This document shows positions 1 to 62,511 of a stretch of DNA of 62,511 bases, in pieces; the stretch's first letter is position 1, and each line of letters begins with the position of its first letter. The stretch comes from Elsinoe ampelina (taxonomy: Eukaryota): positions 62,001 to 124,511 of the forward strand of contig ML992518.1 of NCBI GenBank assembly GCA_010093995.1, given 5' to 3'. A program made the translations under genes and the position numbers. A model generated the notes under the pieces. That model did not search any database and had not been told where the DNA came from. It was given only the letters and a program-made list of their open reading frames with translations.

Positions 1-3000
1 AAAGAGAATAACTTAGATATTATTATTAATAAGAATAAGAATAAGAATAATAAGTAGTTATTACGCTTATTACTTATAGGTTAGCTATATAAAGTATATA
101 TAGTATAGGTGTTTCTAGCGTTATTCTTATAAAGATACTAGGCTAAAGAGCTATAGATAGAAATAGATAGTCTTAATCCTTAAGCTAATATTCCTATTAA
201 AGTTATAAAGCTAAAGTCTCTAGTACTAAGTATCTTATTATAAGTATATAATAGTATTACTACGAGTTATCTACTATCTACTACTAAGTTACTTATTCTT
301 CTCTTAACTCTAGCTATACTTACTACTTTCTCTAAACTCTCTTAATAAGTTATCTATCTCTTTAAAGTTCTTTTTCTTTATCTATAAGCTCTTAGTCTTA
401 TTATACCTCTCTTACTTAAGTAGATATTTCTTCTTTCTTATACGTATAGTATACTTTATAAGAATCTTTTCTATATACTAAACTTGTTCTCTATCTTCTA
501 CTAACTCTAGGGCTTTTATATTTAGTAATTCTTCCTCTTCCCTAGAGTAAAAGAGCTCTAGGAGAGATATATAAAATACGTTATATATACGATAAGAGCT
601 TAGTAGCTATAGGTAATATACCTAAGAGTTAATTGCTTCTTTAATACGAAATAGGCCTATAAATTTGTCTATTAGCTTTCTACTTAGGGCTTTAAGCTTA
701 AGGTTCTTTATATTTAGCTATACTAAGTCCTTTAGCTTAAACTTTATTAGGGTGTACTTCTTATTATAGTATTAGGTTTAATACTTAACTACGGCCTTTA
801 AGCGCTCTTAAAGATTTACTTATAGTATATATATATTTTACACTTATTATATAGCTACTAGTACCTCCCCCTCTAGCTGCCTATCCTTAGGCGAGTTATA
901 GAGGATTAGGTACTTTCCTAGAATAATAAAGAACGGAGTTTCCTTTGTTACTATATATATTAAGTTATTATATATAAATTTAGCTATATAAAGCAAATTT
1001 AGCTAATCTTTAGAATACTCTCCTATAAATACTTAGAGGTAGTATTCGAGTGTCTAATTCTAGTATTTTGTTTACCTATTAGTTTATAGATAGAAAGCTA
1101 TACTTAACCTACGCTTTACCTATAGTTAATAGCAAATTGTAGTCTAGAACTAGCTTATAAATAGAGATTCTCTATCTAATATAATTCCTTTCTATATACT
1201 ATATTTGCAAATTATATACTTAAAGTAGATATCTATAAAGTCCTTTATAGTCTATATCTCTTTAGCTATAATATAGATTACTAGCTTTAATAATCTATTA
1301 TAGATTACTAAGATTACGTTATATATACTACTATTATATATTATAGAGGAGAGCTTTATAATAAAGTCTAGTATAACTTCTTTAAAGATATTAGAAGGAA
1401 TAGGTAGAGATAATAGCTTACTATATAGTATATACTTTAGTGCTTTTAACCTTTAGCACGTGCTATATATCTTAATATACTTATATACTTCCTAATCTAA
1501 TAATAGCTAGTAGTAGTGTCTACTAATTAGATTATACGTTCTTATAGCGCTATAGTAGCTAGCTATACGAGAGTTATAGTATTAATATAAGATTTCTTAT
1601 CTTAGACTTAGTTTATTAGGAACATAGAGCCTGCCCTTATATATAAGAGTTCTATCTTTATATTTACGCTATACTAGCGACTTTTTACTACTTCGGGTAT
1701 ACTCTTCCTACTCTAGATCGGCTATACGTTTTAAAGTAAAAGCGTCTCTCTACTAAAGTATATAGATAGTCTATAATATTAAAGTATCCCCTACTAATAT
1801 AAGTTCGCTAGTAATAAGCACTCTTACTAGATAGTGTAGTATATATAGTATATATTCTATAGTACTAGTAGTTAGGCTAGATTCGCGTTTATAGGTTATA
1901 GGCTATTAACCTATAACCTCTAAGCTATACTTAGAGGTAGAGCTAATTCTACTAATAAGTTACACTCTTATAGTAACTAGATCTAATCCTAGTTTACTTA
2001 CTAAGTTTAGCTTATATTATAAGGTAGAGAGTAATTTTATAAGCGCGTAGTTCTCCTTAAAGTAGTTTACTCTTCTTAAGGGCCTATCGGCTAGATTTAA
2101 CTTACTAGAGTAGTACTAGACTTCGAAGTTAAAGGCTCCTAAGTAGGACGCCTATTATACCTAGCGCGGGTTAAGCTTACTTATATTATATATACCTCGT
2201 AGGTTATTATAGTTACTTAGAACCTATATAGTATACTAAGTGCCCTTAAGGTAGTAACGCTACTACTTAAAGTAATAGACAATTACGTATAGTTCTTAGT
2301 TATATACCTCCTAGATATGCTCTACTCCCTAAAGCTTCTTAGAAATAAAGGTAACTAGGTACTATTTCTCGTCTTTATATAGCTAGGAGAGGATACCTAC
2401 TACTATAAAGGTTAATATATCTATCTCTAGGTATATTAGTAGCTAGAGGTCGAAATATTATAGTAAAGGCGCTTCTATAAAGCACGCTTTAAGCTAAATA
2501 AAGCTAGCTTCTATAGCTTCTAGCTATATAAAGGTAGATTGCTTCTTCTTTAAGAGATCTATTATAGGGGCTATTAGTTTTATATAATTCTAAATAAATC
2601 TATAATAGAAGTTAGTAAAGCTAAGGAATAACTAAAGCTCCTTAATGCTAGTTAGTCGAGGCTATCTAGAGATAGTTACTACTTACGTAGGATTAGCGTA
2701 GATACCTTACGTATCTATAATAAACCCTAAGAAGGACATCTACTTTATAGTAAAGATATACTTAGATAGGTTTATAAATAGTTTAGCCTATCTTAACCGT
2801 TTAAGAATAGCGCTTACTACTTACTAGTAAGTATCTAGATCTTCGCTATAAGTATAGATAAGAATATTATCTAGGTATACTATATATAGATAGTCTACTA
2901 ATCCTCTAAGAGTCTAGTTAATATAGGCCTAGAAGGTAGTAGGCGCGTTAGTAAGCCTAAAAGGTATAACTAGGTATTTAAAATAGCTATAACATATTCT

Positions 3001-5302
3001 AAAGGTAGTCTTCTACTTATCTCCTAGGCTAATATAGATTCTATTATATATATCCTTTAGATCTAGAGTTATATAGTAATATACGCCTAATAGGTAGTCT
3101 AGCATCTTACTAATTAAAGAAAGTAGGTAGTAATCCTTTATAGTAATAGAGTTAAGGCCCCTATAGTTAATATATAAACGAAGAGTACTATCCTTCTTTA
3201 GTATAAATAGGATAGGTACCTCTACTAGGCTTATACTATAACGAATCTAGCCCTTCTTAAGTATATCTTCGAGGTATAATTATAGTACCTTAAGCTTATA
3301 TAAAGAGAGGTTATAGAGTAGGCTATAAGGTAGCTTCTTACCTAGTAGAATAGGAATTTAATAATTCTCTTCTTTAGTAGTAGGCAGGATTTTAGTAGTA
3401 TTAGTATTAAAGATATTCTAGTAGTCTAATAATACGTCTAGTACCTAATTTTCCTAAGAGATACTAGCGATTTAGATACGAGCAATAACTTTCTTACCTT
3501 AGAGGTTACTATAAACTACGCCTAAGAAGTATATATAGCTCTCCTCTTGTTCTAGCTACTAGATTATTACTATCTAGATATGTAACTTATCTTTAATACT
3601 CTAAGCCTAAGTCTACTATCTATAGTCTAGCTATATAGCTTCTCTTTATAAGAAGGAGTTACCTAAGAGTAGCTCTAGTTCTTCTTTATCTACTCTATAA
3701 GTAATAGTTTTAACCTAGTATATCACACCTCAGTCATTAGTAAGTATTACCTATATCTTATATATAGTATATATAGCTTTCCTTTCTAACTCTACCTAGG
3801 CTAGTTAAGGTAGGTTACTTAGTACTAAGTTAAGGTTTATCTTAATTACTATATACTAGCTAATAAGGCTAACCTTTACTTAAGAATCTAAGATAACTTC
3901 TACCTTATAGTCGACTCTAGTTACTCCTATTATAATATAGATGTGATATATCTCTAGTAAAATATTAATAGCTCTATACCTCGTAGTTCTAGAGGTAACT
4001 ACGAGGCTTAGTCTTTTCCCTAGGCCTATCTTATATAAGTAATAGGCTCCTTATTAGCGTCTAAGAGTTAAGCTTTCTTTCTATACTTATTTACGTAGTA
4101 GCTTATCTTCTTATAGAAGTAGTATTTAACTTTCGACTTATAGGAGAAGTCTTTCTTAGGGGCTAACTTCTCTTTATATTAATCCTCGCGTTATAGCTTT
4201 TAGCTATATCTAGCTAAGTAATTATAATAGTTCTATAGCTTACCTACGCTCTATAGGTTATACTCTAGCGTAGATCCTAAGATAATAAGACCTTCTCTTA
4301 TTAGAGGTATAGTATAGTAGTTTATAATTACTTACTAAAGTTTAGAGCGGAGTTTTAAGAATAGGTGCTATATATAGTACTCCTCTAAGTAGAGAGGTAG
4401 CTAGTCCTTAATTATTTCTAAATAGGTAGCGAAGGTCCTAATACTCTATCTAGAAAGTTATAGCGTAGTAGTATACGTAGTAGTTGCTTCTAAGGTGCAA
4501 TTAATAGGATTAGAGAGTATATCTAGTAGAAAGGTCTTAAATTAGCTCTAGGTATACGATTTTATAAGTAGCTTATACTCTATATAAGAGTACTATACTT
4601 TACGCAAGTCTCTTATAAGATACTAGCTTACCTAAGTAACCTTCTCTTATTCTAACTAGAAGTTCTCTAGAGTAAGCTAGAAGACTATCTTATAGCTCCG
4701 AGTAAATTCCTTATATTCCCTTAGGTATTTCCCTTTATATTCCTTAGGATCCTTTAGCCTTATACTATACTTTACGCGCGAAGGTTCTATATCTTAAGAG
4801 GTATAGCGCTTATAACTTCTAGCTACTAATCTTGTTCCTATATCGCTTTAGATCTTAATACTATCTAGATTTGCTTCTCTCTTAAGAAGAGTAATTTATT
4901 TCTTAATCTATCGAAGAGTTTATTCCTATAGGAGATAATCCCTTTACTATTCTACGTCGTAGATATACTTCTCGAGCGAGGTAGTTACTACTAGTAGTTC
5001 TCCTAGAGTAGTTATAAAGGTTCCTATACCCTTCTTATTACTAATAGAGCCTAACTATATTCTTATAATAGCTATCCTTAGACTACTTCCTAAGTAGAGT
5101 AAGGAAGTATTATTATATTAGAGGTAGATTATATTAATACTAGTAAGTATATATAATAATTAACTTATAGTAGTATAAGGATAGCTCTTAATTAGTAGTA
5201 CAAATAATACTTAAGGAAACTATCTTCCTCTACTAGTACGTAGTAAGATTAGAGCCTATATATATAGGCTATCTAAAGCTAGCTAGACTCTAGATTCTTA
5301 TA
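1..5302 (-). mobile_element. RIP-degraded Ty3/Gypsy chromovirus relic D (gag-pol; 3' end outside window)
   Basis: Minus-strand de-RIP reading gives RT '[22 protein letters not shown]...VVYLDDILIY' (~2990-2860), integrase 'GIISDRESLFTSQFW' (~1190-1140) and chromodomain 'WYVEKIL...KYLLKW' (~490-400). Probable 5' LTR at ~5111-5302 is tentative because its partner LTR is not in the window. Confidence 0.85.
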
Positions 5303-6150
5303 CCTAATTAGAAGCTTATACCTTATCCCTAAAAATCCCTATAATACTACTATATAGAGCTATAGAACGACTAGGCTAAATGTCTATTATAAGCGGAATT
5401 TGTAAGTAATAATAGTATTTATACTACGCTATATATAAGCCTCTTTTAAATAATATATAGCTACTATCTAGAGCTAGAAGTAATAGCTATTAAGTCTCGG
5501 GACAAGACTTTAGAGAGAAGAGTACTAGTAGTAGTAGAGTTAGCGTAATACTTATAAGATATATATATAAAGCTAGTAGAGTAATAGAAAGAGACTTTCG
5601 CCTACTAGGCTAAGTACTATAATAGGAAGTATACGCTAAAGGTATATAGTATAAGTAACTTAGTACTACTCTCGGCTAAGAACTTATAGCTACCTATACT
5701 AAAGAAGAAGATAGAACTATAATTCTTTAGCCTATTTCGTATACTTAATATAATTAAATCGTAGGTGTATTACCTAGCTTTACTAAGTTAGTATTATATC
5801 TATAATATCTTTTATATATCTCTTTTTAAACTATAGATAGATAGAGCTAGTAAGGAGCTAGAAGAGAGTATATCTCTTACTAACGAAGTAGATAAGTAGA
5901 TAGTAGAGAAGATCCTAGGTAGAAGAACTATAAAGGGTAAGGTATTCTACTTAGTAAAGTAGAAGGACTAGCCTATTAAGTTTAATAGCTAAGAACCTAA
6001 AGAGAATTACGTAAATACGAGAGAGCTAATTACTATATATAAGTCATAGCTTAGAGTAGCTAAGAAAAGTTGCTAAAGGCGTAGATTATAGAGTATATAA
6101 GTAGATAGATTATATAAATATATAAATAGAGTAAAGAGTAGACTCCTTAT
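5303..6150 (+). mobile_element. Truncated Ty3/Gypsy relic E (integrase C-terminus plus chromodomain), probably interrupted by element D
   Basis: De-RIP reading 'NDWAKCLSQAEFxSNNS...SPFQMMYGYHPE' (~5365-5475) and chromodomain '[37 protein letters not shown]' (~5897-6008). Boundaries approximate. Confidence 0.75.
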
Positions 6151-6199
6151 CTAGGGAAATGTATTTTAATAAAGCACTATACTTACGCTATTATTATAG

Positions 6200-7370
6200 G
6201 TATTAACCTAAACTCTATACTCTATTATACTCTATATAAGGCCTTATTATAGGTATAGTACTAGGGACGCGTACCTAGCTTATATATACCTACTTATCTA
6301 TATTACTACTCTCGTCTACCTCTATACTAAGATTCTCCCCTATAAGTACTATAGGGGCTATAAGCTACCTACTAGCTATAATATAGTTAATTTTAGTAGT
6401 AGAACTACTAGAGTTATATACTATCTAAACCTATTAGTCGTGTTTATAACGTATAAGGAGTATAGTTTAACTTACCTTCTTACCGATAGTAATTAAGCTA
6501 TAAAGGCTATACTTAATCTTCTATAGCTCCTTAACCTTCTTACGCTCGAGCGTAATACTACTAAGCGAGCTACCTATAGGCTCTATATAAGGAGTTAAGA
6601 CCTCGCTAATAACCTTATTCTTATTAGTATAGTATACCTTAAGTATAGTCTTAAACTTCTTAACCTTAGGGACGTTTTTATAGGCTATAGCACGTATATA
6701 CTTCTTAGCTATAGTAATACTAGCCTAGTCGGAGGCCTTAAGCTTAGTAACTATATTAAAGGCGTTAATATATATATTATATAGGAGAGATAGAAGCAGC
6801 TCGTATATATACTTACTATAGGCGTAGTATTTATACTTATAATAGAAGAAGATACTAAAGTTACCTCTAGTATAGATATAATCTACTACGAATTAGTTAT
6901 GTCTCTTATAAGAGCTCTATTAGCTTACTCTTAGTAATACTATTAGCGTACCTAGTATAGGTATTAGTCTTCTCTTTAGGAAGTAAAAGAGTTATAGAGT
7001 CGGCGCTAGTAGTAATAGCTCTCTAGGCGCTAGTAGACTTTACGCTATAAGTATTAGCTATAGGGGGGCTAGAGTTAAATAATATAATAGTTATAGGTAG
7101 TACGCTTATATAGTAAGAGATTAACAAAATATAGATATATTTTAGGTAGAAAAGAAGAATATAAGGAAGAATAATAAGATTATATAGACTAACCTCTAGT
7201 ATACTATATCTTTATTATAGCTACTAGCGTAAGGTATACGTCTCCTACGATACTACTAGGAATTCTAAGAAAAGTAATATTATTGCCGCCGATTAGCTTT
7301 AGCACTATAGTAACTAGATAAACGCCCCTCTAGGAACTAGATTCTTAGGACTACTACTACTAGACATTAT
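6200..7370 (-). pseudogene. RIP-killed, probably multi-exon ORF remnant of unknown function
   Basis: Long minus-strand frame (~6890-6470) whose stops are only TAG/TAA; intron-like GTTAGT...GCTAAT...TAG at ~7193-7046. No recognisable domain. Confidence 0.35.
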
Positions 7371-7766
7371 ACGAGATATATATAAGGCCTTTATAAAAAT
7401 ACCTTAACTACCTTATATCTATATTACCTCCGAATAATACTATATATTATATACTTCTAGTCGAGAGCTAAGGATAGCTCTCCTAGAGGAGGAGACAATT
7501 ATAAGGGCTTAGTATTAGAGCGGCACTTAGTAGCGGCTAGTCTCGCTTATATAATATACTTAAATATCCTACGTAGCGCTTATGCCTAGGGCTTAATAGT
7601 AATTAGTTCTACTACTAACGGACTATTCGGTTAGATAGGCGTTCTCTATATTACGACATATATAGCTTTAATATAAGGCTTTAATAGATACTAATTTACA
7701 TAGCGTAAACTAGGTAAAAGTATCTAATTCGACTACTAAGATAGTAAGGTATCTAGCTTACTTAAT

Positions 7767-8559
7767 TTAATCTAGCTCGTATAACTATCTTAGAGTAATA
7801 CTAGCGCTTAAAAGGGCTAATTTAGCTTTAAATCTAGTATAGAAGGCCTTTATTAAAGGCCTAGGTATCTCTCTACCTATCCGAGCGTATACCTCTTATA
7901 CTATTAAGGTCGTAATTCTCCTTCTTTAGCTTAAATTTAACCTAATCTAGTACCTAAATATCTCTTTTAAAGCTTCTCTTTCTCTTTATCTACTTAAAGA
8001 ATTTAGTTAAAACTTTGTAAGGGTTAGCCTTAAAGGTAATAGGTAAGGATCTTAAGTCGTTTATAGGCCCTAAGCGCTACTATAGCTAGTAAGGAGTAAT
8101 CGAGTTTATAATATTAATATAGTTAATAGGTGTTAGAGAGAGTATAAAAGGTACTAAAGATACTAAAGGTATTAGTATTAGTAGTGTTAGTAGAGCGCTT
8201 TTAATACTCCTCGAGGCCTTTAAGCGATTAAGGCTTAATATAAGGCCTATAGAAGAACAATTAATAGTAGCTTTACTATTATAAATAGTAGTAGCCTAGG
8301 TATACTTATTCTCCGTTATAATCTAGTAGTACTTACTAGTTAACGTACGCTAGTATAACCTCTTATAGTTATAGTAATTACAATTAGTATAAGTCTATAC
8401 CGACTCTAATAGAGGCTTCTTATTACTATTTACGCCCTCGAGCGTACTACGTAATTAGCTCGTTACTAAGCCTTAACCTTATAATAGTAGCGCTAGCTAT
8501 ACTACCTATAAAGACAGTAGTATTATACTAGCTACTAGAGTCTATACCGTCCTTACTAG
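7767..8559 (-). pseudogene. 3' part of RIP-killed ORF C1 (continues from 23625-22740 across the element B insertion)
   Basis: The reading frame stays in register when element B and one copy of its ACTAG TSD are removed; only TAG/TAA stops. Confidence 0.55.
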
Positions 8560-8645
8560 TAATACGAGATAGATACGAACTAGATTTAGTTAGGATCTAG
8601 TTTAGGAATTAGTTATGTAATCTTAGTATCGTAGCCTAGGCTTCT

Positions 8646-8856
8646 TATAATAGGAACTATAAACTTATAGCTAGTAGACAGATGTCGAAGATACGTTATT
8701 CTAGCTACGATTCTATATAGTATATATAGTAGTAGTTCCTAACCTTCTATAGAGAGGTTAGGAATTTATTATTATATTTATATAGTATATACTTCTCCTC
8801 TATTACTTCTCTATCTTAGAGACATTATACCTACTCTATCTAGATACTCTATTATA
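8646..8856 (+). repeat. 5' LTR of Gypsy A
   Basis: Near-identical direct repeat of 16350-16560; termini TA...TA are consistent with RIP-mutated TG...CA. Confidence 0.93.
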
Positions 8857-11800
8857 ATTTAAATTCCTCCTAAAACTATAGTTAAGATAGCTTAAGTCAA
8901 TAGTCTTAACGTAGTTAGCTTAATAAAGAACTAACGGATTATCCGCTATAGATACTATATCTACTAGCTCGGTAGAAGCTACCTAATTAAAACTTATTCT
9001 CTCTAATATATCTAAGGAGGAGCTATATACTACCTAAGAAGAGCTAGCTTAACTCCGCTAGAATAGAGAGTATATAGAGATCTAGAGAGCTCTTATAATT
9101 AAGCGTAAAGGACCCCTTTAGAAGAGAACCTATATCGATACGTAGGAATAGTAAGAGAAGTCTAATAATAATAATTAGTTATACTAGAATAGTATCTCTC
9201 GAGGAACCCCTAATCTAGATATTTCTCTAGAGATACTTTCTCTTTAAATTAACCTTAAGAAAGTACAAAAGCTAGAAGTACTAGAGAAACTAAAGAGATA
9301 TATATACCTTACTAACGTAAAGGCGTTTATTCGATTATACTATACTATCTTTAGAGTCTATAAGTATATTTATCTTACTAGTAAAGATCGAGTCTAGTTT
9401 ATAGCTAGCTATCTAAATAGATTCCTCGCTATAATATAGAAGAGCTATATTAATAACGTAGGACCTTAGGCTAAGAACTAGAGCTACTTTTAAGAATAGA
9501 TTAAAGATTATATTATAGATAAGAGTAACTAAGCTTTAAAATATACCTAACTATTCTATAATAGTGCTTAGAGATTAAACTAATTAGTCGCTAAGTTTGC
9601 CTAATACCTCGAAGAGTATACTAAAGAAATTAGTAATACTACTATAGATAAGGCTTAATTTATAAGCTACCTTATTAATAGTGTAAAGCCTACGTATTAA
9701 TAGAGCTATATAGCGCTCTAAGACCCTCTAAGGGGTAAAGATAAGGCTATCTCCTACTTTACTTATATTAAGAGTATATTTAGAAGCTAAGCTATCTCTA
9801 AAACGATATATATCTCTCGCTACTTCGTAGATAAGCTAAAGAGAGGTAACTAGAAATTCTAGAATAACAAAAATAAGAAAAAAAGAAGATTTAAAGACCT
9901 TATATCTAGGGTTAATACAACTCTAATACTCTATTACTCTAACCTCTTAGAGGTAAAGTACTATAGGTATAAGTAACTTAGCTATATCTACTCTAACTAC
10001 CCTTATAATAAGATAAAAAACTAGATACTCTAGCTATAGATCTCGCCTCTATATAGCTAGGAGTATCTAAAGGAGGTTCGCTACTAAGCTAACTAAGGAT
10101 AGACATTTACCTTAGTTAGAAAGGTAGAGCTCTATCTACTAATTACGTAGCTATATCTCTTATAGATTTAGGAGCTAATATTTGTTTTATTAACTACTAT
10201 TACGTAAAGGAGAAAGAAGTCTACCTATATACTAATAGCGTAATAAGAGTAAAGTCTCTCGACTAGTACGAGATATACTTATATAGATACTACTATCTTA
10301 TAGTAGAAGCTACTAACTACTATAGCGTTATAAAGGAGATTCGATAGTACTTTAAGTTAGTAGAGATAAAGAGATATAACTTAGTACTAGGCTAGACGTA
10401 GCTCTTTAGTATTAATCTAGACATCGATTAGTAAAGCTAGAGATAGAGATATTACTCTACTAGCGTTAATATAACGCTCTTAATAGTAGAAGAATTTACT
10501 AAGGAAATATTAGAGTAGCTATAGTACTATATAGTTTTCTTAAATATAATTTATAAAGATAATACTCTAACGTTATAGAGTAAGCTTCTAAGCTAGCTCT
10601 ATAACTTCTTAGATATATTCGATAATAAGGAAGCTATTACTATACTCTCTCTAGCGCTATATAACTACTTAATTAAACTTATCGAAGAGAAGTAACCTCT
10701 ATAGAGACCTATTTATACCCTTATAGAGACGGAGCTAAGTACTCTTAGAGAGTACCTAGCTAAGAATTTAAAGCTAGGCTATATTCGCTACTCTACTAGC
10801 CTTATAGAGGCTCCTATCCTCTTTATGCCTAAGGCTAATAAGTTACTATATCTCTACGTCGACTACTAAGGTCTTAATAATGTCTTAGTAAAGAACTACT
10901 ACCCTTTACTCCTTATTACCGAGATACTTAATAGAATCTAAAGGGCTAAGGTATACTTAAAAATAGATCTTAGGGATATATACTACTATATTTAGATTAA
11001 GGAGAGCGACGAATAGAAGATAGCGTTTTAATATAGATATAGACATTTTAAATATATAGTTATACCTTTTAGCCTTATAAACGCTCCTACTACCTTCTAG
11101 TTATATATTAGCTAATACCTTAATAGCTTAGTTAATTACTACTATATTGTCTATATAGATAATATTCTTATCTACTCCTAAGACTCGTTATAGTACTATA
11201 GGTATATTAAAGAAGTTCTAGCGTAACTTAGGAAGTATCTTCTTTTTATAAAGGCTTCTAAGTATACCTTTAAAGTTAAGAAAGTATAGTTTCTAAGATA
11301 TGTTCTAAGCCCTAAGAGTGTCTCGATAGAGCCTTAGAGGGTTTAAGCTATTATAGACTAGCTAGAACTTACTTCTCTAAAAGAACTCTAGATCTTTCTT
11401 AGATTTATAAACTTTTATTAATAGTTTATTAATAGCTACGTAGAGATAATAAGACCTATAATATAACTACTTATAAAGAGTAAAAATAGAAAATAGATAG
11501 GTCCTTTCTACTTTACTAATAGTACTAGGTAATTATTCTAATATCTTAAAGACTACTTTATAACTACTTCTCTCCTATAGTTTTTTAATAAAAGTAAGAA
11601 TATAAGAATATATACTAACTCCTCTAGATTTACTATCTCTAGGATTACTATATAACTATTTAGTAATAGCGGAGAGAAGGTAGTCTAATAGTACTCTATT
11701 ATATACTATTTATAGAAACTATAGGGAGTAGAGTTAAACTAGCCTATATATAACTAAGAGCTACTTACTATCCTCGAGGTAGTATACTACTAGTAGTAGT

Positions 11801-14123
11801 ATCTCCTCTCTATTTCTTCTACTACTATCGTATTTATATATTATAATAATCTAAAATACTTCTTAATAACTAAGATACTCTTAGCTTAATAGACCTACGT
11901 TAGCGAAGAGCTATTATAATATAATATCTAGATTACCTATAACCTAGAGAAGCTTAATTCTACTAATAGACTATTAAGAAGACTAGACCTAGATACTAGA
12001 GATAAGTAAGCTAAGGTAGACTTATACCTATAGGTCCTAAGAGACTTATATAAGAGACTAAAGAGATATCTCCTCCTTAACGCTATAATAGTAGCTAAGT
12101 AAGTTAAGTTAACCTAAGATATATAAGATAAGATACTAGATATAAACTTAGTAGTTACTAAGGACTCCTTACTAAGATAGCGTAGTAAGATAGAGTATAC
12201 TAGGAGATCTAAAGATACCTAAGAGAGTATTATAGCCTAAGGCGAGATACTAGATATAGATATAGAAGCTAAGATAGCTCCCCGCGAGGGTAGAGATAGT
12301 AGATCTACTCCCCTAGAGGTAAGTAGTTCCTTTTACTATTCCCTATAGATAACTATAGTAGAGAGATTATAGAGAGATTATAGAGAACTTACTAGCCCTA
12401 GACATCTATACGCGATAGCTACAAAAGAAGATAATATATATAAAGAGGCGCTACTAAGGCTACTTAGCCTAGTAAAGAGGCTATAGTAGTAAGATACTAT
12501 AGTAGAGACAACACTAAAGCGTCTTAGTAATCCTAAAGAAAGAGAGACTACTAAGAGAGAGAGCTAGAGATAGTAGAATAATAGCGTCCTACTATTCTAA
12601 GATAAAGTCTTTATCCTAGCTATAAAAATACTAACTACGGAGATACTCTATAGGAATTATAATAATCTAATAGTAGGCTACCTCGGAATAGAAAAGATAC
12701 TCTTTATACTAAAGTAGAAGTACTATTAGAAGAGTATAACGATAGACGTTACTAAATATATAAATTACTATAATAAGTACTAAAGAATAAAGGTTTCTTA
12801 ATATTAGCTCTATAGTAAAATATAGGCTCTAAGATTACTCTCTATTAGAGAAGTACTCTAGTATTAGTTAATAGACTTTATTACTAATTTACCTCTAGCG
12901 AAGGACTAATAGAGCTCTATTACTAATTTAATTTTAGTACTAGTAGATAAAGTGTCTAAATATGTTAGATATATTCTAGTAAGAAAAGATATAGAGGCCT
13001 AAGAGTTAGCTAATATTATAGAGAGGAAGATCCTTAGTTACTATAGGTTCTAAGAAGCTAGATTACTAATAGGGGTACTCTATTTAAGTCTAAATTTTAG
13101 ATATTTCTCTACTAGAGATAGAAGGTCTAGAGATACCTCTCGATAGTGTTCTACTCTTAAACTAATAGCACTACAAAGAGGTAGAACTAGATAATTAAAT
13201 AGTACCTAAGGGTATTTATTAATTTCTACTAAGATAACTAGCTATACTAGCTATATTAGGCTAAGTTTACCTATAATAGCTCCTATAGCGCATTACTAGA
13301 GGCAAGCCTACTCTATTATATTTATAGAATAGTCCTATATCTCTCTAATAATATTAAAGCTAACGCTATAGAGAAGAAGGTAGCTCTATAACTACTAGAA
13401 GTACTAGTAGTAGAAGTAAAAGTAAAGGCTCTATAAGATATAAAAGAAGAACTTAAGTAGTATAGGCTTAATACTATTATATAGTAGAAGGTATACTATA
13501 ATAAGAAGTACTAGCTAATAAGGTTTAAGAAAGGCTAAGAAGTTATACTAAGTACTAAGAACCTCTAGTCCCTCTAGCTAAAGAAGAAGCTAGTAGCAAA
13601 GTTTATAGGTCTATTTACTATCGCTAAGATAGTAAGCTACTAAGTATACTAACTTAACCTTCTAGTATATATAAAATTAATCTACTTAATCTTTTATATA
13701 TCTCTCCTTAAGGCTTATTAACAAGGTAATAATATTACTCTACTACTAGTAGAGATTAAGAGGGAAGAAGAATATAAGGTTAAAGAGGTAGTTAATAAGA
13801 GTCTTATTAGGGGTAAGACTTACTATAAGATACTCTAGAAAGGCTATTCTAAAGAGGAAGCTAGCTAGGAGCTAATAGAGTATCTATAGAATACTATTAG
13901 TAAAATTAAGAACTTTAAGAAGAAGAGCCTTATTCTAAGTATAATAGTAAAGTAACGCTATATTAAGTAAGAGACTTATAAGGCTTAAAGAGCTTAAACT
14001 TACACTATAGAGAAAGAGAGAGATAAAGGAATAGTATAAGATTAAGATTTAAAAAAGTAAGTCTATATTATAAAAAAGTATTATATTAGCTTAACAATAT
14101 ATCTCTAATATAATACTAGCAAA

Positions 14124-14671
14124 TTATAAGAGGTCTATCTTAACTCTATTCTCTAAATCTTTAGGCTTATCTAGCTCTACTAGCTTAAGGATAAGATTAT
14201 TATATAGAGACTCTATTATATCTTTATTAAACTTCTAAATATAGATAGTAGTATTAAAGGTATACTAGGTTAAAATAAGACTCTCGATAAGTAGAGTATA
14301 AGAGACGTTATACTACTATAGGTTAGCTATTATAGTAACGATATAGAATAAAAACATATAAAGACATATTTAGTATAGAAGTATTAATAGAGGTAGTAGT
14401 AGAGGAAAGTACCTACGTTATTATTATAAATATATTAGGACTAGACCTACTTATAGTTAAGGTATATAGTAGTCTAGTAGCAAATATAAGGCTTATACTA
14501 ACGGTAGTACACTAGCGTAGCGTAGTTAGAAGGGGTCTAGAACTATAGAAACTTAGGCTTAGAGCTCTTACTATAGTTATAGTTATAGTTACTAGAGAAG
14601 TCTCTACTAAATCTAAGACGGCATATTACTTCTATAATAACGTTAGTAATCTCTAGAGACTCGAAGGACAT
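14124..14671 (-). pseudogene. Antisense accessory gene 1 inside Gypsy A (two exons, putative Cys-cluster protein), RIP-killed
   Basis: Intact ATG at 14671 (MSFES...). Intron 14359-14316 with (G>A)TATGT donor, GCTAAC branch site and TAG acceptor. Exon 2 is acidic after de-RIP and ends at TAA 14126-14124. Confidence 0.6.
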
Positions 14672-15071
14672 AGTATAGCTAGAGTTATTAATCTAATTAG
14701 TAGAGATATAGTAGGTCGTAATACTATAGAATTCTAATATTATAGCGTAGAAGTTAAGTAGATAGAAAGAATAAGAGGTCTAAGAAGATTAAGGAGAAAG
14801 AGAGAGAAGATAATATATATATATTACTTCTCTATTATCTAAATAATAATACTCTCCTTAATAATACTTACCTTAATAATAGACTCTTAATAATATAATA
14901 ATACTTAAGGGGATAATAGGCCTCTAATAAAGAAGTAAGAGTAATCTAAGAGCTATAGCTCTACTAAGGGCTATAAAATAAAAGACTTAAGCAAAAAGAA
15001 GAAGTAGAAAGTAAAAAACTCTATAAACTCTAAAAGGTAAAATCTATCTCCGATAGCTCTAAGCTATTATA

Positions 15072-15832
15072 TTAACTAAGGAACCTATACTTATACCTAG
15101 AAAACCTAAAGACTATACTAGTAACTACTCTAACTCTCTAAATCTCTTAAGCTCTACTAGTAGTACTACTAAGGGCTAGCGTAGTAGCGTAGGTAAAAGC
15201 CTTCCTAGTAGGCTAGGTACTAATAATTCTTACTAATAACTTGTTAGTCTTTTAGCTACTAGTAAGTAAGGTAGCAAAGTTCTTATAGGTCGTAGGTAGA
15301 TTATTATTAGAGTTAGATTTTTCTCTCTTTCTCTTCTTCTCGGTAGAAAAATATTTAGCCTTAAGAGTAGTAATATATCTCGCTATTATAGTATAGGCGT
15401 CGTAAATATACTACTTATCGGCTAGTATAGCGTCTAACTTCCTATTCTTATTAGTATAACGACGGACGTAGATAGCCTTATAAGTAACTCTAGTAGCTTT
15501 AAGTTTATTACTATAGCGCTTAGGGAACTAGGAGTATTAGTATTACTCTAATAGAGAATAGACGTTAGACCTATAAAGGTATAGCTATTATAGTAGAGCC
15601 TATAGAGCTAGTAGAAGGTATAATTATTCTACTCCTTATAGTAGTAAGAGTCGTTAGTAAAGTTAGTATTATCTAATATTATATATTTAGTAGCGAGCTT
15701 AAGGTAGTTAATATAAGGGCCTCTCTTAATAAGAATAATATTAGCGTAACTAGAAAATAATAGCGAAGTACCTTCGCGCTAGATCTAGCTATAGTTAGGT
15801 CTACTAGAGGTAGTACTTACTAGAGAAGATAT
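15072..15832 (-). pseudogene. Antisense accessory gene 2 inside Gypsy A (two exons, putative Cys-cluster protein with basic NLS-like tract), RIP-killed
   Basis: ATA (probable RIP-mutated ATG) at 15832. Intron 15574-15528 with (G>A)TAGGT donor, CTAAT branch site and TAG acceptor. EKKRKREK is read directly at ~15340-15318. The stop position is uncertain. Confidence 0.6.
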
Positions 15833-16349
15833 ATTAAAAGAAGATTTCTAATAGTAGAGAAAGAATAATAAGACGTTAGAGAGATACTAGGAGATATTAG
15901 TATAGAATATAAGATAGAGAGTAAGGAGCTATACTTTAGTAAAAGAGTTTTTAGAAGAAAGAGAAAAGATATTCTAATAAGAGAGAAGCCTTATATATAT
16001 ATCGAAGCGTCCTATTATTCTATTATTACGAACAATAGAAGGCTTCTATACTAATTAAGAGAAGAAGAATATAAGAAGAAATAAGGTAGCCTACTAATTA
16101 TTATTATAGCTAGTATAATAGTAGCTAGGAGATAAAGGAATAACGTTATTATATATACTAGATAAGGTAAATTTATATATAAAGTTAAGTAGAGCTATAC
16201 TTTATATTTCTTACCTAATACTAAGATCCTATATATAGACCTCTATATATAGTATAATAATACTTCGAAGGTAGTCTACTCTTTCTCTACTACTAGAGAG
16301 TTTTAATAAGGGACTAGCCTAAGGATAGGCCTATAGAAAAGAAGGTAAT

Positions 16350-16560
16350 TATAATAGGAACTATAAACTTATAGCTAGTAGATAGATGTTAGAGATACGT
16401 TATTCTAGCTATAATTCTATATAGTATATATAGTAGTAGTTCTTAACCTTCTATAGAGAGGTTAGAAATTTATTATTATATTTATATAGTATATACTTCT
16501 CCTCTATTACTTCTCTATCTTAGAGACATTGTATCTACTCTATCTAGATACTCTATTATA
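16350..16560 (+). repeat. 3' LTR of Gypsy A
   Basis: Direct repeat of 8646-8856, followed by TSD CTTCT. Confidence 0.93.
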
Positions 16561-19500
16561 CTTCTAGCTACTTTGCCCTCGATATTATATATACTTTATA
16601 TACTAGCTTTTCTTCTTCTTCTTTTAAGTCTTAATATTTTAATAAATAGACGTAATTAACTTCTTATCTTACTAGTTGTAATTACTATATCGAGACTTTA
16701 AAATAACTACGACTAAGTAACGGAGCTATTAAACTATCTAGTTATTCTACTACTTATATAACTACTAATAACTACTACTTATAAAGAATTAAAGAATTAA
16801 AGAAGAAGCTATTATAACTATAGTTCCTACGTATACTATAACAGATCCTTACTACTGCCGTATAGGTTAATACTATAAACTATAAATATAAGAAGAAGGT
16901 AATAAGTTAAGTTACTAACGACTTAAGAAGAAAGTAAGCTACTAGCTAAATTTTTAAATATTCTCTTTATTACGTATTAACTTTTTCTACTATTATATCT
17001 ATAACTAACTACGCTAAGTATAGCTTAATCTAACTATAGCAATAAAGAGCGCTACTAAAGTAAGCTACTTTAACCTATCCCTAATAATAATAATATCTCT
17101 ATCTACTCTCTCTACTATAATCTTTTTACTCTCTCTAACGCTATACTCCTTAAGAAGCTATAGGAAGAGTATAGTATATAGGCACTAAGAGACGTATTTA
17201 ACTATATTAAGTTCTTCTATAATAAGTAAACTATATAGGTAAAAGGCGCTTATACTAACGCTCTCTACTATTACTACGAGTTAGATACTACTTAGGCCTA
17301 GCTTAGTAATCTCTAATCCGAACTAGACGTATCTTAGTCCTATACTAATAGCGTTACTACCTAAGCTACTTACTACCTAGACAAAATCTAAGAGCTTAAG
17401 GCTAAGGTAAATTAACTAAGAAACGAGATAGAGCGTAGTATACTAGCCCTTTCTATACGTAGCTCTACCTTATTAGAAAAGATACTAGACTCTACTATCT
17501 TTAGTACAGGTATACCAGAGTAGTTTAAGGTCTTTAAGTACTAGATAAGAAATAAGATATACACTAACATAGATCGTTTCTCTATAAGAGATACCTAGTT
17601 TACCTATCTATACTTATACCTCTCTAGAGAAGCTTATACTCTTATTATAGACTTAGCTAATAACGATGTTATTAGCGTTAAAAAGGTTCTTACTCTTCTA
17701 GCTTAGCGCTTTAAGGATCCTAACTATAGAGCTACTATATGTACTTAGTTTACTAACCTCTTCTAGCGTAATAGTATATTTAACTCCTTTATTAGCGAGT
17801 TTAATAAGTACGCTCTTTACGCTAAGATTGCTAAAGAGGAGTAGCTATACTAGATCTATTAGAAGATATCTAATAAGCTACGTAATACTCTAGTTAACTA
17901 CGACACTAATAACCTTACTACCTTTATTACTAAGGCCTACGCTACTAACTATAATATCTAATAGAATAACCTTATTACTAAGTGCACTTAGGCTTTACGT
18001 TCTATACTAGCTATAAGCTACGCTACTACTATACCTACTTACGTACCTTATTCTACCTCCGCGCCTATAGCTCTACCTACCTTTTGCCCTATTACTAGAG
18101 GTACTCTATAGCCTTTCCGTCTAGCTCTAGTACTTACCTATTATATATATAGTAAGCCTAGATATATCTCTACTAAGTATATAGCTAGCGCCTTAGAGAA
18201 GGCTACTTACGCTACTATACGCCTCGTACGTATTAGCGCTATAAAGAAGATATAGTAGCTTTAGAATTACTTAGCCGAATTAAGTAACTAGGTCGATACT
18301 AGTTTAGCCTACGAACTAGATCTAGTTTAGCCTTAGTTCGACCCTAAAATAGACTACGAGTCTACTAACTACTCTAGCTAGAGAAATAAGTAGCTAGAGG
18401 ATAAGTTCTATTCTCTAGTAGAATAAGAGTAATTCGAGATAGATCTAGAGAAGGTATACGTTTAATAAATAGCGTTATTAGCTACTATATCCCTACTATT
18501 ATAACTCCTATTACTATTTATAACTCTTATAACTACTCTTATACTATTACGCTCTAAGCCTTTATTAATACTAGCGCGCTTATTAGCGCCGTAGTTAATT
18601 ATAACGTCCTTAATAAGCTAAAGAGCTTTAGCTACTCTATAGCGTTAGCTAGCTCTATTTAGCTTTAGGCTTATAATAGTGTTCTAATAGAGTAAGTTAC
18701 TTATAGCGTTTCTCTTACTACTACTATCTCTAGTAAGCTAAATACTCTTACTACCTTCTATATTATAGATATTAGCCGTTTTAATATTATTCTTAGCCTT
18801 AGCTAGCTTAAGGCTAATAGGGCTACTATTAACTACAAGTATAGCTTAGTTATATATAAAGAAGAGTTTTTACTAGTTATTATTAAGTAGAAGCTACTAT
18901 AGCTAATTAAAAGGCTAGGATCTAGATCTAAGCCTAGCTTAGATCTAGGAATTTAGCTTAGTAAAGCTACTACTCTAGTTCGGAACTAGTTTAGTTCTAG
19001 TTTAACCTACGAACTAGGTTCTAGTTCGGCTACTAAGATAGAACGAACTAAATTATATCGACTACTAGCTCTTAGGTCGAACCTTAAGCTAGATTAAGAG
19101 AAGTTTAAACTAGTCTCCTATAGTACTTAGTTAATATATAAGTTCTCCTACGTACCTACTTATATAAGTAATACTAAATAAGAAGAACTAACTATTGCCT
19201 TTATCGGCGCTACTACTTTTACATCGGTAGCCTAATACTAAGAGAATAAGGTATTTATAATCTTAGTAAAGAACATTAAGGATTACTACTAGATAGTCTC
19301 TAAGCTAGAGCTAGACTCTATAGTAGTTCTTCTAGAGGAGCTATATAGATTTACTAATATCTTCTCTAAAGAGTAGTCTAATACGCTTCCTCTATACTAG
19401 CTAGATTTTAATAATTGAATTATACTTAAGAATAGAGCTAAACTACTATATACTAAACCTCTACGCTACCTTTTACTAGAAGAGCTTAATATAGTAGAAT

Positions 19501-22500
19501 AGTTTATCTATAAGTACCTCGATAAGAGCTTTATTATACTAAGCTCTACTAGCTACTCTTTACCTATTCTTTTTATTTATAAGCTAGGCGGTAGACTTCG
19601 TCTCTATATTAACTACTATAGCCTTAATAAGGTAACTAAGCGAGACATCTATCTACTACTTCTTATCGAAGAAACACTTATATATATAAGTAAAGCTAAG
19701 TAGTTTAGTAAGATCGATATCTACTAAGTCTTCTACTACCTCTATAACTCTATCGATAGTAAGAACCTTACTATATTCTCTATACGTATAGGCAACTTTA
19801 AGTAGCTAGTAATACTATTTAGCCTTACTAACGCCTCTACTATATAGTAGAGGTTTATAAATTATAATTTTATTAATGTACTAGAGCGCTTCGTATTAAT
19901 CTATCTTAATAATATTCTTATCTATACTAATAGCTCTCGCTATAAGTATACTAAGTATATTAAGCTAGTACTCTAGAGACTCTACGAATTAGGCCTAAAT
20001 ACTAATATTAAGAAGAGTAAGTTCTACCTAATAGAAGTAAAGTACCTTAGTATTATCGTTAGCCGAGATAGAGTTAAAATAGATTCTAAGAAGATAGAAG
20101 CTATTTAAGCGTAGAAGTAGCTAGCCTCTAGTAATACTACTTAGGTAAGAAGCTTTATTAGTTTCTATAGCTATTATTACTACTTTATTAAGGGATTTAG
20201 TACTATCGCTAAGCTACTAAATAATCTACTTAAGAAGGACACCTTACTCTAGAACGATAAGTATACTATAGCGTTTAATTATATAAAGTATACTATTACT
20301 ACTATACTAGTCCTTACTTACTTTAACTACTTAAAATAGATAGTTCTCGAGACTAACGTATCTAACACTACTACTACTAGAGTTCTATTATAATATAATA
20401 GGTCTAACGTTCTCTACCCTATTACCTTTTTTAGTAAGTCTATAAGTAAAGCTAAGCGTAACTATACTATCTATAATAAGGAATTACTAGCTATTATCTA
20501 AGCTTTCGAGGAATAGGCCTCTAAGCTTATAAGTACTTAATCTAATAAGGCTATCTACGTCCTTACTAACTACTAATCCTTAATATACTTTATAAAGACT
20601 TAAAAGCTATTACGCTACTAAGTACGCTAGGCTCTCTACCTTACGTAGTTTAACTTTAAGATTATATATAGGCCTAGTACTACGAACGGTAAAGCTAATA
20701 TACTTACGAGAAGAAATAGAGATATACTATACTTAAAGGAAGACTCTAACCTTCGCTAGATACTACTACTATATAAAGTACTTAATCGGCGCATTATTAA
20801 TAAGCTATATCTAGGCTATATCTAAACTAGACTAGCGACTTAAGCTAAACTAAGAACTAGTTTAGCTACTAAACTAAAATCTAGTTCGTAAACTAGTTCG
20901 CTACCTACTTTACTACCTATATTAGCGCCTACTTTAGCTACTAAACTAGGTATCTATGTAGTACCTATAATAGCTATAGAAGAGCCTTTATCTCTTTTTA
21001 AAGAAGTAGCTAAAGCTAACTTATAAGACGCTAAGTATAAAATAGTTTAAGGTATCTACTATATAATAGAGACCTTTCTAAAGAGGAAATAGCTACTATT
21101 AACCGATGTTACTATTAATAAAGGAATGTTATAGGTCGCCGGCCGACTATTCGTACTATAGTTAATAGCTATAAAGGTTATCTAAGAGGTCTATATATCG
21201 AAGAACTACATATATACTAGAGCTACTAAAATAGCTACTATAATTAAGACTACCTTTTTTATTCTAGGCTATATAAACTTTATTAAGAGGTTCGTTACTA
21301 ATTACTATAACTATAAACGCTTAAAGGCTCGCTATAGCTTACTAGCTAGCCTTCTATTACCTTTACCTATTCTAGAGAGGCTCTAGTAATATATTACGAT
21401 AGACTTTATTACTAGTCTACTCTTAGCTAATAGCTATAATGCGGTGCTCTATATCGTCGATTATTTATCTAAGGAACAATACTTAATTCCTTACTTCTCT
21501 AGAGATAGAGAGACCTTAGCGTTCGAGACTACTAAGCTATTATTCTTCTACGTATAGAAACTATATAGTCTACTAGATAGTATTACCTCTAACTACGGCC
21601 CTTAGTTCGTTAGCGACGTATAGAAAAGACTATACTAGATCCTAAAGATTACTACTAAACTATCTACTATAGGGTATCTATAAATAGATAGCTAATTAGA
21701 GGTTATAAATCGTAAGTTCGAGCGAGTTATCTATTTATACACTATACGCTTTAGTAATTAGACACTTATTCTACTAGTTATAGAATTCTCTACTAATATT
21801 AACCTATTAGAAAGTACTAAGCTATTACTATTCGAGGTTACTAGAGAATATAAGCTAAGGCTAAGCTTCTAGCTCCCTTCTAATATACTATTAATAAGAG
21901 CTAAGCTAAATAAGGTCGACATCCGCGTACTTACTAAGTAACTAGAAGAGGCACTAGCTATTACTAAGGCTAACCTCGCTGTCGCCTAGTTATAGATAGT
22001 AGAATAAGTAAATAAGTACTACTAGCCGATTAAGTTTAAGGCTAGCGATTTAGTTTAGCTATCGATAAAGAACCTCTAGCTATAGAGTAATCTAAAGCTA
22101 CTACTAAAGTATATTAGTCCCTATAAGATCCTCGAGAAACAATTACTACTAGTATATAAGCTTAATCTACTAGCTATACTATAGAGGATTTACCTAGTAT
22201 TCTACGCTAATCTCCTTACTAAGTACCTAAATAACTCTCTACTAGGCTAAGCCTTTAATAAACTACCTCTAGTAGAGGTTAATAGTAAAGAAGAGTATAA
22301 GGTAGATAACGTAATTAATATACGTATACTATAAGGGAAGCTAGTTACTTATATAAGCTAGAAGAGCTATCTAGAGAATCTTATCTAGTAGCTAATTAAT
22401 AATCTTAAAGGAGTAGCCGACGTGCTACGTAACTATCTAGACTATTATACAAATAAGCTAAGGCTAAAATAGATCGACGAATAATATATAATAGCGTTTA

Positions 22501-22529
22501 AGGGTAAATGTATTTAAGAGAGAAAGTAG

Positions 22530-22734
22530 TAATATAAGATAGATACGAACTAGATTTAGTTAGGATCTAGTTTAGGAATTAGTTACGTAATCTTAGTATT
22601 ATAGCTCGGGCTTCTAGCTACTCCGCTCTCGATATTACGTGTACTTTATATACTAGCTTTTCTTCTTCTTCTTCTAAGTCTTAATATTTTAATAAATAGA
22701 CGTAATTAACTTCTTATCTTACTAGTCGTAATTA
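22530..22734 (+). repeat. 3' LTR of Gypsy B (uninterrupted copy)
   Basis: Matches 8560-8645 joined to 16566-16684 with a single CTTCT; followed by TSD ACTAG. Confidence 0.93.
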
Positions 22735-61800: not shown

Positions 61801-62511
61801 AAAGGTAAAGACCTTATAATACTATTACCTAAAGTTATTAGTAAACTATATTTAACCTTTAATCCTATAGTTAATGTTAATTAACTACTAATATATATAT
61901 AGAATAAGGATGTTAACTTCCTTATTATACTATTTAATATATAACCTCTAACTAGTAAAAGAAAGAGATTTCTCTTACTATAAGAAACTATTAGAAGGTC
62001 CCTTAGAACACATCGCTAGATTAATTATAAGAAACTTAACAATAGTAAGATTATTAGATCTATAGCTATTAATTTTAAGCTAGACCTATAAATAGTAAGA
62101 GATACACTATCCTCTCCTAAAGGTTATTACTAGTAAGCTATAATAGAGGCAGAGTAGAAGACTCTAACTAACTCTAAAACCTTTTTAATTATTAAGAAAT
62201 CTTAGGCACTAAGAGGTATTAGGCTAATAACAGACAAATAGGTCTTTAAGACTAAGAGGCTTACTAATAGCAAAGTTAAAAGATATAAGGCTTATTAGAC
62301 TATAAGGAGCTTTACTTAAAGAGTAGGTATTAACTTTGTTAGAACCTTTATACTAATACTAAGAGCTAAAACTAGGAGAGTAATTCTTGTATATACTCTT
62401 TATTATAACTAGGTTATTATAATAGTAGATGTAGTTACTATATTCCTTAGACTAGACATTAATATTAAGAACTATATCTCCTACCTAGAAGGCGTACTAA
62501 TTCCTAGTAAA
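58702..62511 (+). mobile_element. RIP-degraded Ty1/Copia retrotransposon (runs off the window end)
   Basis: De-RIP motifs in Copia order: protease 'IYDSGASRHF' ~60100, 'RWHQRLSH' ~60563, integrase 'LHLDLIGP' ~60745, 'SDGGGEF' ~60940 and 'QYQNGKSE' ~61030, then RT 'KWVFKTK...RYKARW.VRGFTQ..GIDF..TF' ~62237-62350 and 'DVVTAFL' ~62428. Confidence 0.92.

Follow-up and report, generated by a model that had tools for sequence, protein, structure and literature searches.

Two putative antisense genes with zinc-cluster-like starts between pol and the 3' long terminal repeat of a degraded Gypsy element in Elsinoe ampelina

The element and its 2.4-kb spacer

In a stretch of 62,511 nucleotides from Elsinoe ampelina (assembly GCA_010093995.1, contig ML992518.1, forward-strand positions 62,001 to 124,511; the whole of this stretch is called the window below), a Ty3/Gypsy retrotransposon, element A, holds a spacer between the end of pol and its 3' long terminal repeat (LTR). 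On the minus strand of this spacer lie two tandem gene models, gene 1 and gene 2, each with a proposed intron and a putative six-cysteine cluster. Both have been mutated by repeat-induced point mutation (RIP); both are dead, and nothing there can still function. The features are collected in Table 1.

Element A, a Ty3/Gypsy element degraded by RIP, is complete: it has paired LTRs with a target duplication and the order reverse transcriptase, RNase H, integrase. A repeat finder returned direct repeats of 215 nt at 8645–8859 and 16349–16563 with 95% identity, which on reading base by base become LTRs of about 211 bp (TATAATAGG...CTATTATA). Searched against Pfam as a plus-strand read-through with X at stops, the pol is above cut-off for RVT_1 (E 2.6e-14) and RT_RNaseH_2 (E 2.3e-08), below it for Integrase_H2C2 (E 0.0011, 19.5 bits against a cut-off of 25.5), and gives weak matches to SH3_Tf2-1 (E 3.5e-05, 24.2 bits against 30) and, in what is RIP-damaged sequence, to Chromo (E 0.17, 12.3 bits against 25.1). 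The last pol-domain match stops near 13926, leaving 2.4 kb up to the 3' LTR. Repeats, CTTCT pair and pol domains all agree with the anatomy proposed in a first-pass annotation made from the letters alone, which had placed a gap of this size between pol and the 3' LTR, inside the boundaries of the LTRs and target duplication. The damaged pol matches 72 Gypsy pol proteins at E ≤ 1e-5 (best E 9.6e-94), and a named protein of Elsinoe australis is the most similar of these (53% identity across 30% of the query). In a pol tree with 16 other loci, element A came out on a branch of 1.98 with no supported placement.

Element A sits in an LTR of a second Gypsy element, element B (8557–8644 and 16564–16684, with an internal part at about 16685–22526), and the intact insertion target GGGCTTCTAGCTAC is visible in the other LTR of this host element (22527–22734). 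The pol of element B reaches to about 130 nt from its 3' LTR, so there is no accessory spacer in it. The 5' LTR of element A contains a perfect inverted repeat of 10 + 10 nt (TTCCTAACCT / AGGTTAGGAA, 9 nt between the arms, 8736–8764), degraded in the 3' copy (16440–16467), which could be the site of a dimeric factor or a hairpin.

That the spacer belongs to element A is supported by contigs from two runs of one sample in one study, which contain 60–62% of the words sampled from the stretch. Thousands of short contigs, aligned at 80% likeness over 8400–16800, cover 30 of the 30 bins of that interval at 80–99% likeness. Summed word depth (contig depth being different from copy number) is about 3,100–6,400 in the spacer bins (14020–16267) and about 4,200–9,000 in the gag-pol bins (8962–14019), the spacer having roughly 60–80% of the depth of pol in both runs. 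Differences between contigs and window, at about 900 places, are almost all transitions (A>G at 240–254 places, T>C at 234–242, C>T at 139–150 and G>A at 153–165), and together with the full coverage this is what many RIP-mutated copies containing the spacer would be expected to give. The first-pass annotation had allowed that other copies might lack the region; contigs lie over every spacer bin, but one of them does jump over 14602–15898. Most other copies, as seen in these contigs, differ by one base at 15101. By self-BLAST of element A, no second spacer turned up in the window, nor any internal duplication, and the six frames of the spacer had zero matches in Pfam. Two length differences were seen besides: one contig is without 84 nt (28 codons, in frame) within gene 2 exon 1, at 15717–15802, and another is without 66 nt (14057–14122), with CAG in their place.

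Table 1. Features of element A and of its spacer, in window coordinates
Feature	Position	Strand	Basis or remark
Target-site duplication CTTCT, left copy	8641..8645	.	sequence reading
5' LTR	8646..8856	+	repeat finder and end reading
RIP-degraded gag-pol, frameshifted and stop-filled	8860..13970	+	Pfam and protein homology
Gene 1 exon 2, proposed, with TAA stop (14126-14124) and moderately acidic end	14124..14315	-	translation
Gene 1 intron, proposed, 44 nt, ATATGT...GCTAAC...TATAG	14316..14359	-	reading; donor G inferred by de-RIP
Gene 1 exon 1, proposed, intact ATG (14671-14669)	14360..14671	-	translation, periodicity
Spacer between the genes, candidate gene 1 promoter region	14672..15146	.	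no coding signal
Gene 2 exon 2, proposed, EKKRKREK basic tract, TAA stop (15149-15147)	15147..15527	-	translation, periodicity
Gene 2 intron, proposed, 47 nt, ATAGGT...ACTAAT...CCTAG	15528..15574	-	reading, phase change of the periodicity
Gene 2 exon 1, proposed; first codon reads ATA	15575..15832	-	translation, periodicity
Gene 2 to polypurine tract, candidate antisense promoter and 5' untranslated region	15833..16334	.	plus strand purine-rich; chi-square 5.4, not significant
Polypurine-tract-like AGAAAAGAAGG, separated by 4 bases from the 3' LTR	16335..16345	+	sequence reading
3' LTR	16350..16560	+	repeat finder and sequence reading
Target-site duplication CTTCT, right copy	16561..16565	.	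sequence reading

The frames, the two intron segments, the EKKRKREK tract and the gene 1 stop are all where the first-pass annotation had put them, and the end of gene 1 exon 2 is moderately acidic, in line with the acidic tail claimed there. The frames are not open as they stand: stops number 3 in 126 codons of gene 2 exon 2, 8 in 104 of gene 1 exon 1 and 3 in 63 of gene 1 exon 2, and the 258 codons that lead from the LTR to the donor of gene 2 contain 17. The density of stops by frame gives no discrimination, low-stop windows being found on both strands. As for the introns, which had been called recognisable, the branch-like words are present and both segments finish in TAG, but the donors read ATAGGT and ATATGT and become GT only after reversal of RIP (de-RIP).

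Similarly, the spacing read as N-terminal cysteine clusters is there at both gene starts, but 11 of the 12 putative cysteine codons read TAT or TAC and are thus tyrosine codons. In gene 1 (14506..14362) they are TAC, TAT, TGC, TAC, TAT and TAT, followed by V-F, with the sole TGC at 14482-14480; in gene 2 (15715..15577) they are TAT, TAC, TAT, TAC, TAT and TAT, followed by T-F. The spacing is x2, x6, x23, x2, x6 in gene 2 and x2, x4 in the first half of the gene 1 cluster. TGY to TAY is a canonical RIP change (TpG to TpA), and so is CAY to TAY; the cysteine reading is permitted, not forced, by the sequence of the window.

Coding periodicity and cysteine spacing

Since RIP makes only transitions, the purine or pyrimidine class of each base survives it, and purine/pyrimidine periodicity can therefore be read in DNA whose codons have been lost. 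It was measured against a null of same-length windows from other AT-rich DNA, itself containing transposon coding sequence. Over the three codon positions, purines make up 0.70/0.50/0.35 of the bases in gene 2 exon 2 and 0.53/0.53/0.26 in gene 2 exon 1, and 0.46/0.56/0.29 and 0.60/0.48/0.40 in exons 1 and 2 of gene 1. The strongest signal in element A is that of gene 2 exon 2, with a chi-square of 31.0, matched or exceeded in 4 of 644 null windows, followed by gene 2 exon 1 (18.1; 13 of 655) and gene 1 exon 1 (15.7; 44 of 650). The DNA between the genes (2.2; 450 of 637) and between pol and gene 1 (1.5; 436 of 662) has nothing of the kind. For comparison, the median for coding windows of the host is 5.2, with 20 as the 90th percentile. 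Across the 47-nt segment of gene 2, between 15484 and 15605, the periodicity shifts phase, and in gene 1 the frame change at the proposed intron fits the phase. In essence, a coding-type signal in the proposed frame is present in every proposed exon except gene 1 exon 2, and is missing from the spacers.

Signals of introns, the phase shifts and the 14:0 strand count in related elements (see below) speak for coding on the minus strand. A frame classifier based on purine/pyrimidine codon classes and trained on host genes assigned 22 of 39 frames and 23 of 39 strands correctly, and was rejected as too weak. The periodicity itself is able to recover a coding signal from DNA made unreadable by RIP.

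The second line of evidence within the spacer is the cysteine spacing, with tyrosine codons allowed at each position. The half motif [YC]xx[YC]x6[YC] followed by x-F has three matches, all on the minus strand of the spacer. The full pattern, defined as a first half, 8–30 residues, a second half and then x-F, occurs at only two loci in AT-rich DNA, and these are the two gene starts. Shuffling of residues gave a mean of 0.22 loci and reached two in 4 of 300 trials; shuffling within local frames reached two in 0 of 2000. The third match of the half motif with x-F lies at 14110-14072 on the minus strand, just past the gene 1 stop and in the same frame as both clusters, and may be either chance or the stump of a third copy.

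Antisense genes of related Gypsy elements

Intact genes were sought in relatives of element A, namely 80 metagenomic loci fetched with a profile of 14 pols from the element A search, whose pols are only 31–35% identical to the damaged one. An LTR pair flanks pol in 10 loci, 8 of which have 1.2–4.1 kb from pol to the 3' LTR. The motif count was based on the 40 loci that hold the end of pol and at least 900 nt beyond it, the pair being sought within 3 kb. Paired cysteine half-motifs (CxxCx6-8C...CxxCx6-8C) lie downstream of pol in antisense in 14 of these 40 loci and in sense in 0 of 40, and single half-motifs in 25 and 12, respectively. By tblastn, five further loci match the relatives' antisense genes, which form at least three subfamilies (L003 and L008; L019, L020, L030, L042, L046 and L080; L036, L041, L027, L055, L059 and L057), every one antisense and downstream of pol. 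Where both an LTR pair and an antisense gene are present (L003, L019, L036, L041, L080), the gene is within the LTRs in five of five. The first-pass annotation had looked to homologues between a Gypsy pol and its LTR: genes of like build are found there in 14 of 40 relatives, but the window genes match none of them by tblastn.

The relatives' genes are built of a cysteine cluster, a KRKR patch, a long helix and an acidic tail; they fill the spacer and keep introns. Their start is 118–170 nt from the 3' LTR (L003, L019) and their end 127–311 nt from the end of the pol match. In L003, ...PPCDRCR.SSNSDECELANSARTPTCSRCQRSKIKCTF... is followed by EKRKQGKK and EKRKRMKK, a helical stretch and an acidic tail; one half of its cluster reads CSRCQRSKIKC, then TF, with the basic EKRKR patch and the acidic tail after it. 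In the second and third subfamilies the cluster is split by an intron of 55–57 nt with a GTAAGT donor, an exon ending in CERCADFGILC in L019 and in CERCMSARQDC in L036. Once spliced, L019 reads CERCADFGILC-IPQNLPHATS-CAPCAKAKAAC-KPF, that is CX2CX6CX10CX2CX6C. Other lineages have the cluster unsplit, with linkers of 11 (L023), 8 (L024) and 13 (L047) residues. The pattern that the first-pass annotation had guessed by de-RIP, CxxC...C...CxxC-x6-C and then x-F, is thus the pattern of intact antisense genes at the same place in these relatives. An in-frame linker intron of the relatives' kind was looked for in gene 2, where two ACTAAC words and a TAG are present and no acceptable donor was found.

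Composition that RIP leaves unchanged is also shared. At codon position 1 the purine share of the cluster part is 0.46–0.53 in the window and 0.46–0.57 in five relatives, and after the cluster it is 0.60–0.70 and 0.63–0.81, respectively. The share of YRY codons (pyrimidine, purine, pyrimidine) in the cluster is 0.26 in gene 2 and 0.35 in gene 1, and 0.21–0.29 in the relatives, which removes the objection that a protein with a quarter of its codons in the tyrosine class would be implausible. The window genes and the relatives are linked by this RIP-invariant composition and by layout, having in common the place, the orientation, the spacing of the cluster, the x-F after it and a basic tract further on, and not by detectable homology.

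Among element copies, six pairs from the second subfamily have ratios of nonsynonymous to synonymous substitution rates of 0.15–0.27, and the ratio between L008 and L003 is 0.19; pol gave 0.10–0.20 in three well-aligned pairs, four pairs with non-overlapping open reading frames (ORFs) having been dropped. These ratios indicate that the relatives' antisense genes evolve under purifying selection. The protein of L008 exon 2 has 126 homologues at E ≤ 0.001, none with a precomputed Pfam domain, and 11 among the 120 homologues listed are hypothetical proteins of 223–357 amino acids from the basidiomycete Scleroderma citrinum. The L024 protein has an exact copy in the ESM Atlas, where the nearest feature clusters score 0.94–0.95, have 62–210 members and are 142–214 amino acids long; these neighbours are hypothetical proteins, and their commonest known phylum is Ascomycota. 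Such genes are therefore found in both fungal phyla.

Zn_clus is the commonest Pfam match in an alignment of such proteins, A2 (17 of 33 members at E ≤ 1, best E 0.00092; 3 members for the next-commonest family), and the top match for L003, L008, L023 and L024. The Zn(II)2Cys6 spacing CX2CX6CX5-12CX2CX6-8C fits L023 (linker 11), L024 (8) and the spliced group II (10); the linker of L047 (13) is just beyond the range, and group I has x8 in its first half. An AlphaFold2 model of one relative's protein has a helix at residues 123–167 with block-mean predicted local distance difference test (pLDDT) values of 82–98, and the weak structural neighbours of L024 in the Atlas include Zn(2)-C6 clusters at template-modelling scores of 0.25–0.48.

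Two side observations belong here. In A2 (P0078–P0197) the differences between copies of the basidiomycete antisense protein are for the most part changes of R to C, W, Q or H and similar, as C-to-T mutation of element copies would give. One relative, L007, has a 4-kb spacer with a 927-residue sense ORF after pol (L007:5379-8159, plus strand), whose best Pfam match, TIP_N at E 0.0074, is below cut-off.

Interpretation, setting and known systems

We believe that the spacer is probably native cargo of this Gypsy family, made up of two antisense, intron-bearing genes destroyed by RIP, each with an N-terminal Zn(II)2Cys6-like cluster. Each gene would once have encoded a small nuclear protein in which the six-cysteine cluster preceded basic stretches and, for gene 1, a mildly acidic end. 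Antisense transcription would have started at a promoter within the 3' LTR or next to it. As such a transcript is complementary to the genomic RNA, the introns would outlast retrotransposition, an argument that is established for retroelements. The protein would be imported into the nucleus, pair through its helix and bind DNA in the manner of a Gal4-type factor, acting on the LTRs or copies of its own element as a trans-activator or anti-silencer at the level of transcription or chromatin. A nuclear role in binding DNA or chromatin, for the proteins of the window and of the relatives alike, is what we infer from their predicted build. The wider proposition, that Gypsy elements of Ascomycota and Basidiomycota encode their own antisense Gal4-type factor, produced from the side of the 3' LTR with its introns retained and acting on their LTRs by activation or anti-silencing, is a possible but so far doubtful one.

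A good part of what weighs against native cargo would equally serve the alternative that there is no antisense gene at all, the spacer being degraded non-coding or sense-strand DNA in which pattern, introns and periodicity arise from RIP composition together with the free choice of Y to C, Y to H and stop to Q or W; we consider this quite improbable. The half motif is frequent: AT-rich DNA (27 kb; 54,624 codon positions) has 67 matches and the 2.5-kb spacer, over six frames, has 13. With x-F about two would be expected (an estimate, 67 x 0.033) for the three that were found; the full pattern was moreover defined after the data had been seen and is supporting evidence only, although in the shuffles described above it was reached rarely or never. 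RIPped DNA often contains the words ATA.GT, CTAAY and TAG. The periodicity (of the RNY type) is symmetric between strands, the plus-strand frames of the spacer are about as open as the minus-strand ones, the plus strand is 56% purine, like a sense strand, and the periodicity of gene 1 exon 2 is not significant (chi-square 5.5, reached by 180 of 660 null windows). Against this stand the rarity of the gene 2 signals in a null that includes real transposon coding sequence, a periodicity that ends at the proposed exon borders and shifts phase at the proposed introns, and the complete lack of sense-strand cysteine pairs among the 40 relatives. The emptiness of the homologue searches with the window genes, which also favours the absence of a gene, has to be read with their controls. 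Gene 2 exon 2, with X at stops, had no match in a word-indexed protein library, the six spacer frames gave nothing below E 2.7 by tblastn against the 80 relative loci, and a 52-residue stop-free piece of gene 2 had no usable match in the ESM Atlas. Equally damaged pol does recover homologues, so that the method tolerates RIPped input, pol being a universal family and the comparison thus unequal. A RIP-aware likelihood alignment scored the pol control at 60.9 bits (null 12.7 ± 1.5), and for the window genes against 12 relative proteins its best z values were 3.3 and 2.9, with wrong frames and strands reaching 4.5. Aligned codon to codon, gene 1 and gene 2 score 15.8 (null 12.5 ± 2.0), a value reached by 23 of 300 shuffles, and for this reason the donor-anchored purine/pyrimidine identity between them (73–83% over the last 60 nt) is not relied on. 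A phmmer search with gene 2 exon 2 against 1.84 billion representatives had a sole match, P0005, rejected as a tandem repeat hit weakly seven times.

The other alternative, that element A captured one or two fragments of a host Zn2Cys6 transcription-factor gene with their introns, as passengers having no role in its life cycle, is in our view unlikely. In its favour are the spliceosomal introns and a codon bias of the exons (third-position pyrimidine 0.60–0.74) that is stronger than in the pol of element A and like that of a biased host gene. Homology to antisense genes from other Gypsy lineages is not detectable, and those lineages align with each other over the motif only, as repeated independent captures would give: in hhalign, two relative subfamilies share just the 15 columns of CxxCx6C, at a probability of 0.58%, their common descent being only a possibility. 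Many divergent copies in the same sample cover the region, however, and the same type of gene, in the same place and orientation, recurs in 14 of 40 loci of other lineages, where purifying selection among element copies is unlike what useless cargo would show; no host homologue was found either, in searches that are weak for RIP-damaged queries.

Further points weigh against native cargo. The gene 2 linker has 23 residues, against 8–13 in the relatives, and the first half of the gene 1 cluster is spaced x4, not x6. Five single scans of relatives with Zn_clus gave 11.8–15.5 bits, below the gathering cut-off of 21; the A2 profile found nothing below E 1.4 among PDB sequences, and no solved Zn2Cys6 structure; and residues 1–101 of the AlphaFold2 model, including the cluster, have pLDDT below 50. 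Sub-cut-off Pfam scores, an unmodelled cluster and an alignment restricted to the motif are why we call the relatives' proteins, on their sequence, Zn2Cys6-like and do not file them as members of Zn_clus.

As to the setting, AT-rich blocks (24–34% GC) occupy 1–24000 and 59000–62511 of the window, with a gene-bearing block of 50–60% GC between them whose genes include an aldehyde dehydrogenase, transporters of the major facilitator superfamily and an importin-9-like gene. A third Gypsy element, in minus orientation, occupies about 650–7000. At 6100–7200, frames with 1 stop in 100 codons are found on both strands, with purine/pyrimidine periodicity at a chi-square of up to 20.9.

Whether such a system has already been described was a question left by the first-pass annotation. 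For Boty and for plants, antisense genes located between pol and the 3' LTR have been published, as far as the consulted parts of the sources go, and zinc-cluster antisense genes were not found in the literature searched on fungal retrotransposons (main texts, with few subscription journals covered). The window copy is a relic, a real but dead example of an under-described class of accessory gene, and the wider pattern in the relatives is the interesting part. Extra antisense genes of LTR retrotransposons are an established phenomenon without an assigned role, whether in plants or in fungi; should those of fungi prove to be selected zinc-cluster DNA-binding proteins, this would give them a concrete, testable function, that of an element-encoded regulator, and intact proteins are on offer for such tests in the Scleroderma citrinum hypothetical proteins and the metagenomic genes of L008, L023, L024 and L030.

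Among known systems, the antisense gene brtn was reportedly described by Zhao et al. in 2011 (Virology 417:248). It is carried between pol and the 3' LTR by Boty-like Gypsy elements of Botrytis cinerea and Sclerotinia, according to the portions consulted of four papers (PMC7264820, PMC8365987, PMC4227169, PMC5987419). On the same portions the likeness is that of a fungal Ty3/Gypsy element with a chromodomain, weakly matched in element A, and with an extra antisense gene, proposed in the case of element A, between pol and the 3' LTR. The window differs in having two tandem genes, each with a proposed intron, in copies mutated by RIP, brtn being compared here by its description only. Extra antisense ORFs in this place are likewise reported, in the sections consulted, for Grande, RIRE2, Retand, PvRetro13 and Tat lineages of plants (PMC7264820, PMC4408406), with plant mobile domain (PMD), coiled-coil or transposase-28 (Tr28) domains (PMC4408406). 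As far as those sections go, they share place and orientation with the genes described here, are found in most copies of their families and in some cases have a coiled coil, and they differ in being without a six-cysteine cluster and in belonging to the non-chromovirus Tat and Retand lineages.

The proteins themselves can be compared with the Gal4-type Zn(II)2Cys6 factors (PF00172), with which the relatives share the spacing CX2CX6CX(8-13)CX2CX6C (L023, L024, L047 and the spliced group II). Gal4-type factors are built of a six-cysteine cluster, then a basic stretch, a long helix and an acidic tail, and so are the relatives' proteins. Unlike those factors, the relatives are short (about 170–360 amino acids), without the fungal-specific middle homology domain, encoded by a retrotransposon and below cut-off in Pfam. 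HBZ of human T-cell leukaemia virus type 1 (HTLV-1), a vertebrate retrovirus, is an antisense basic leucine zipper transcription factor expressed from the 3' LTR, with a spliced form. The analogy with it is one of layout only, without relation in sequence or fold, and consists in a nuclear factor of a retroelement encoded on the minus strand at its 3' end. If the wider proposition were true, these genes would be for fungi what trans-activators and HBZ are for retroviruses, and zinc-cluster factors of the host might have arisen from them.

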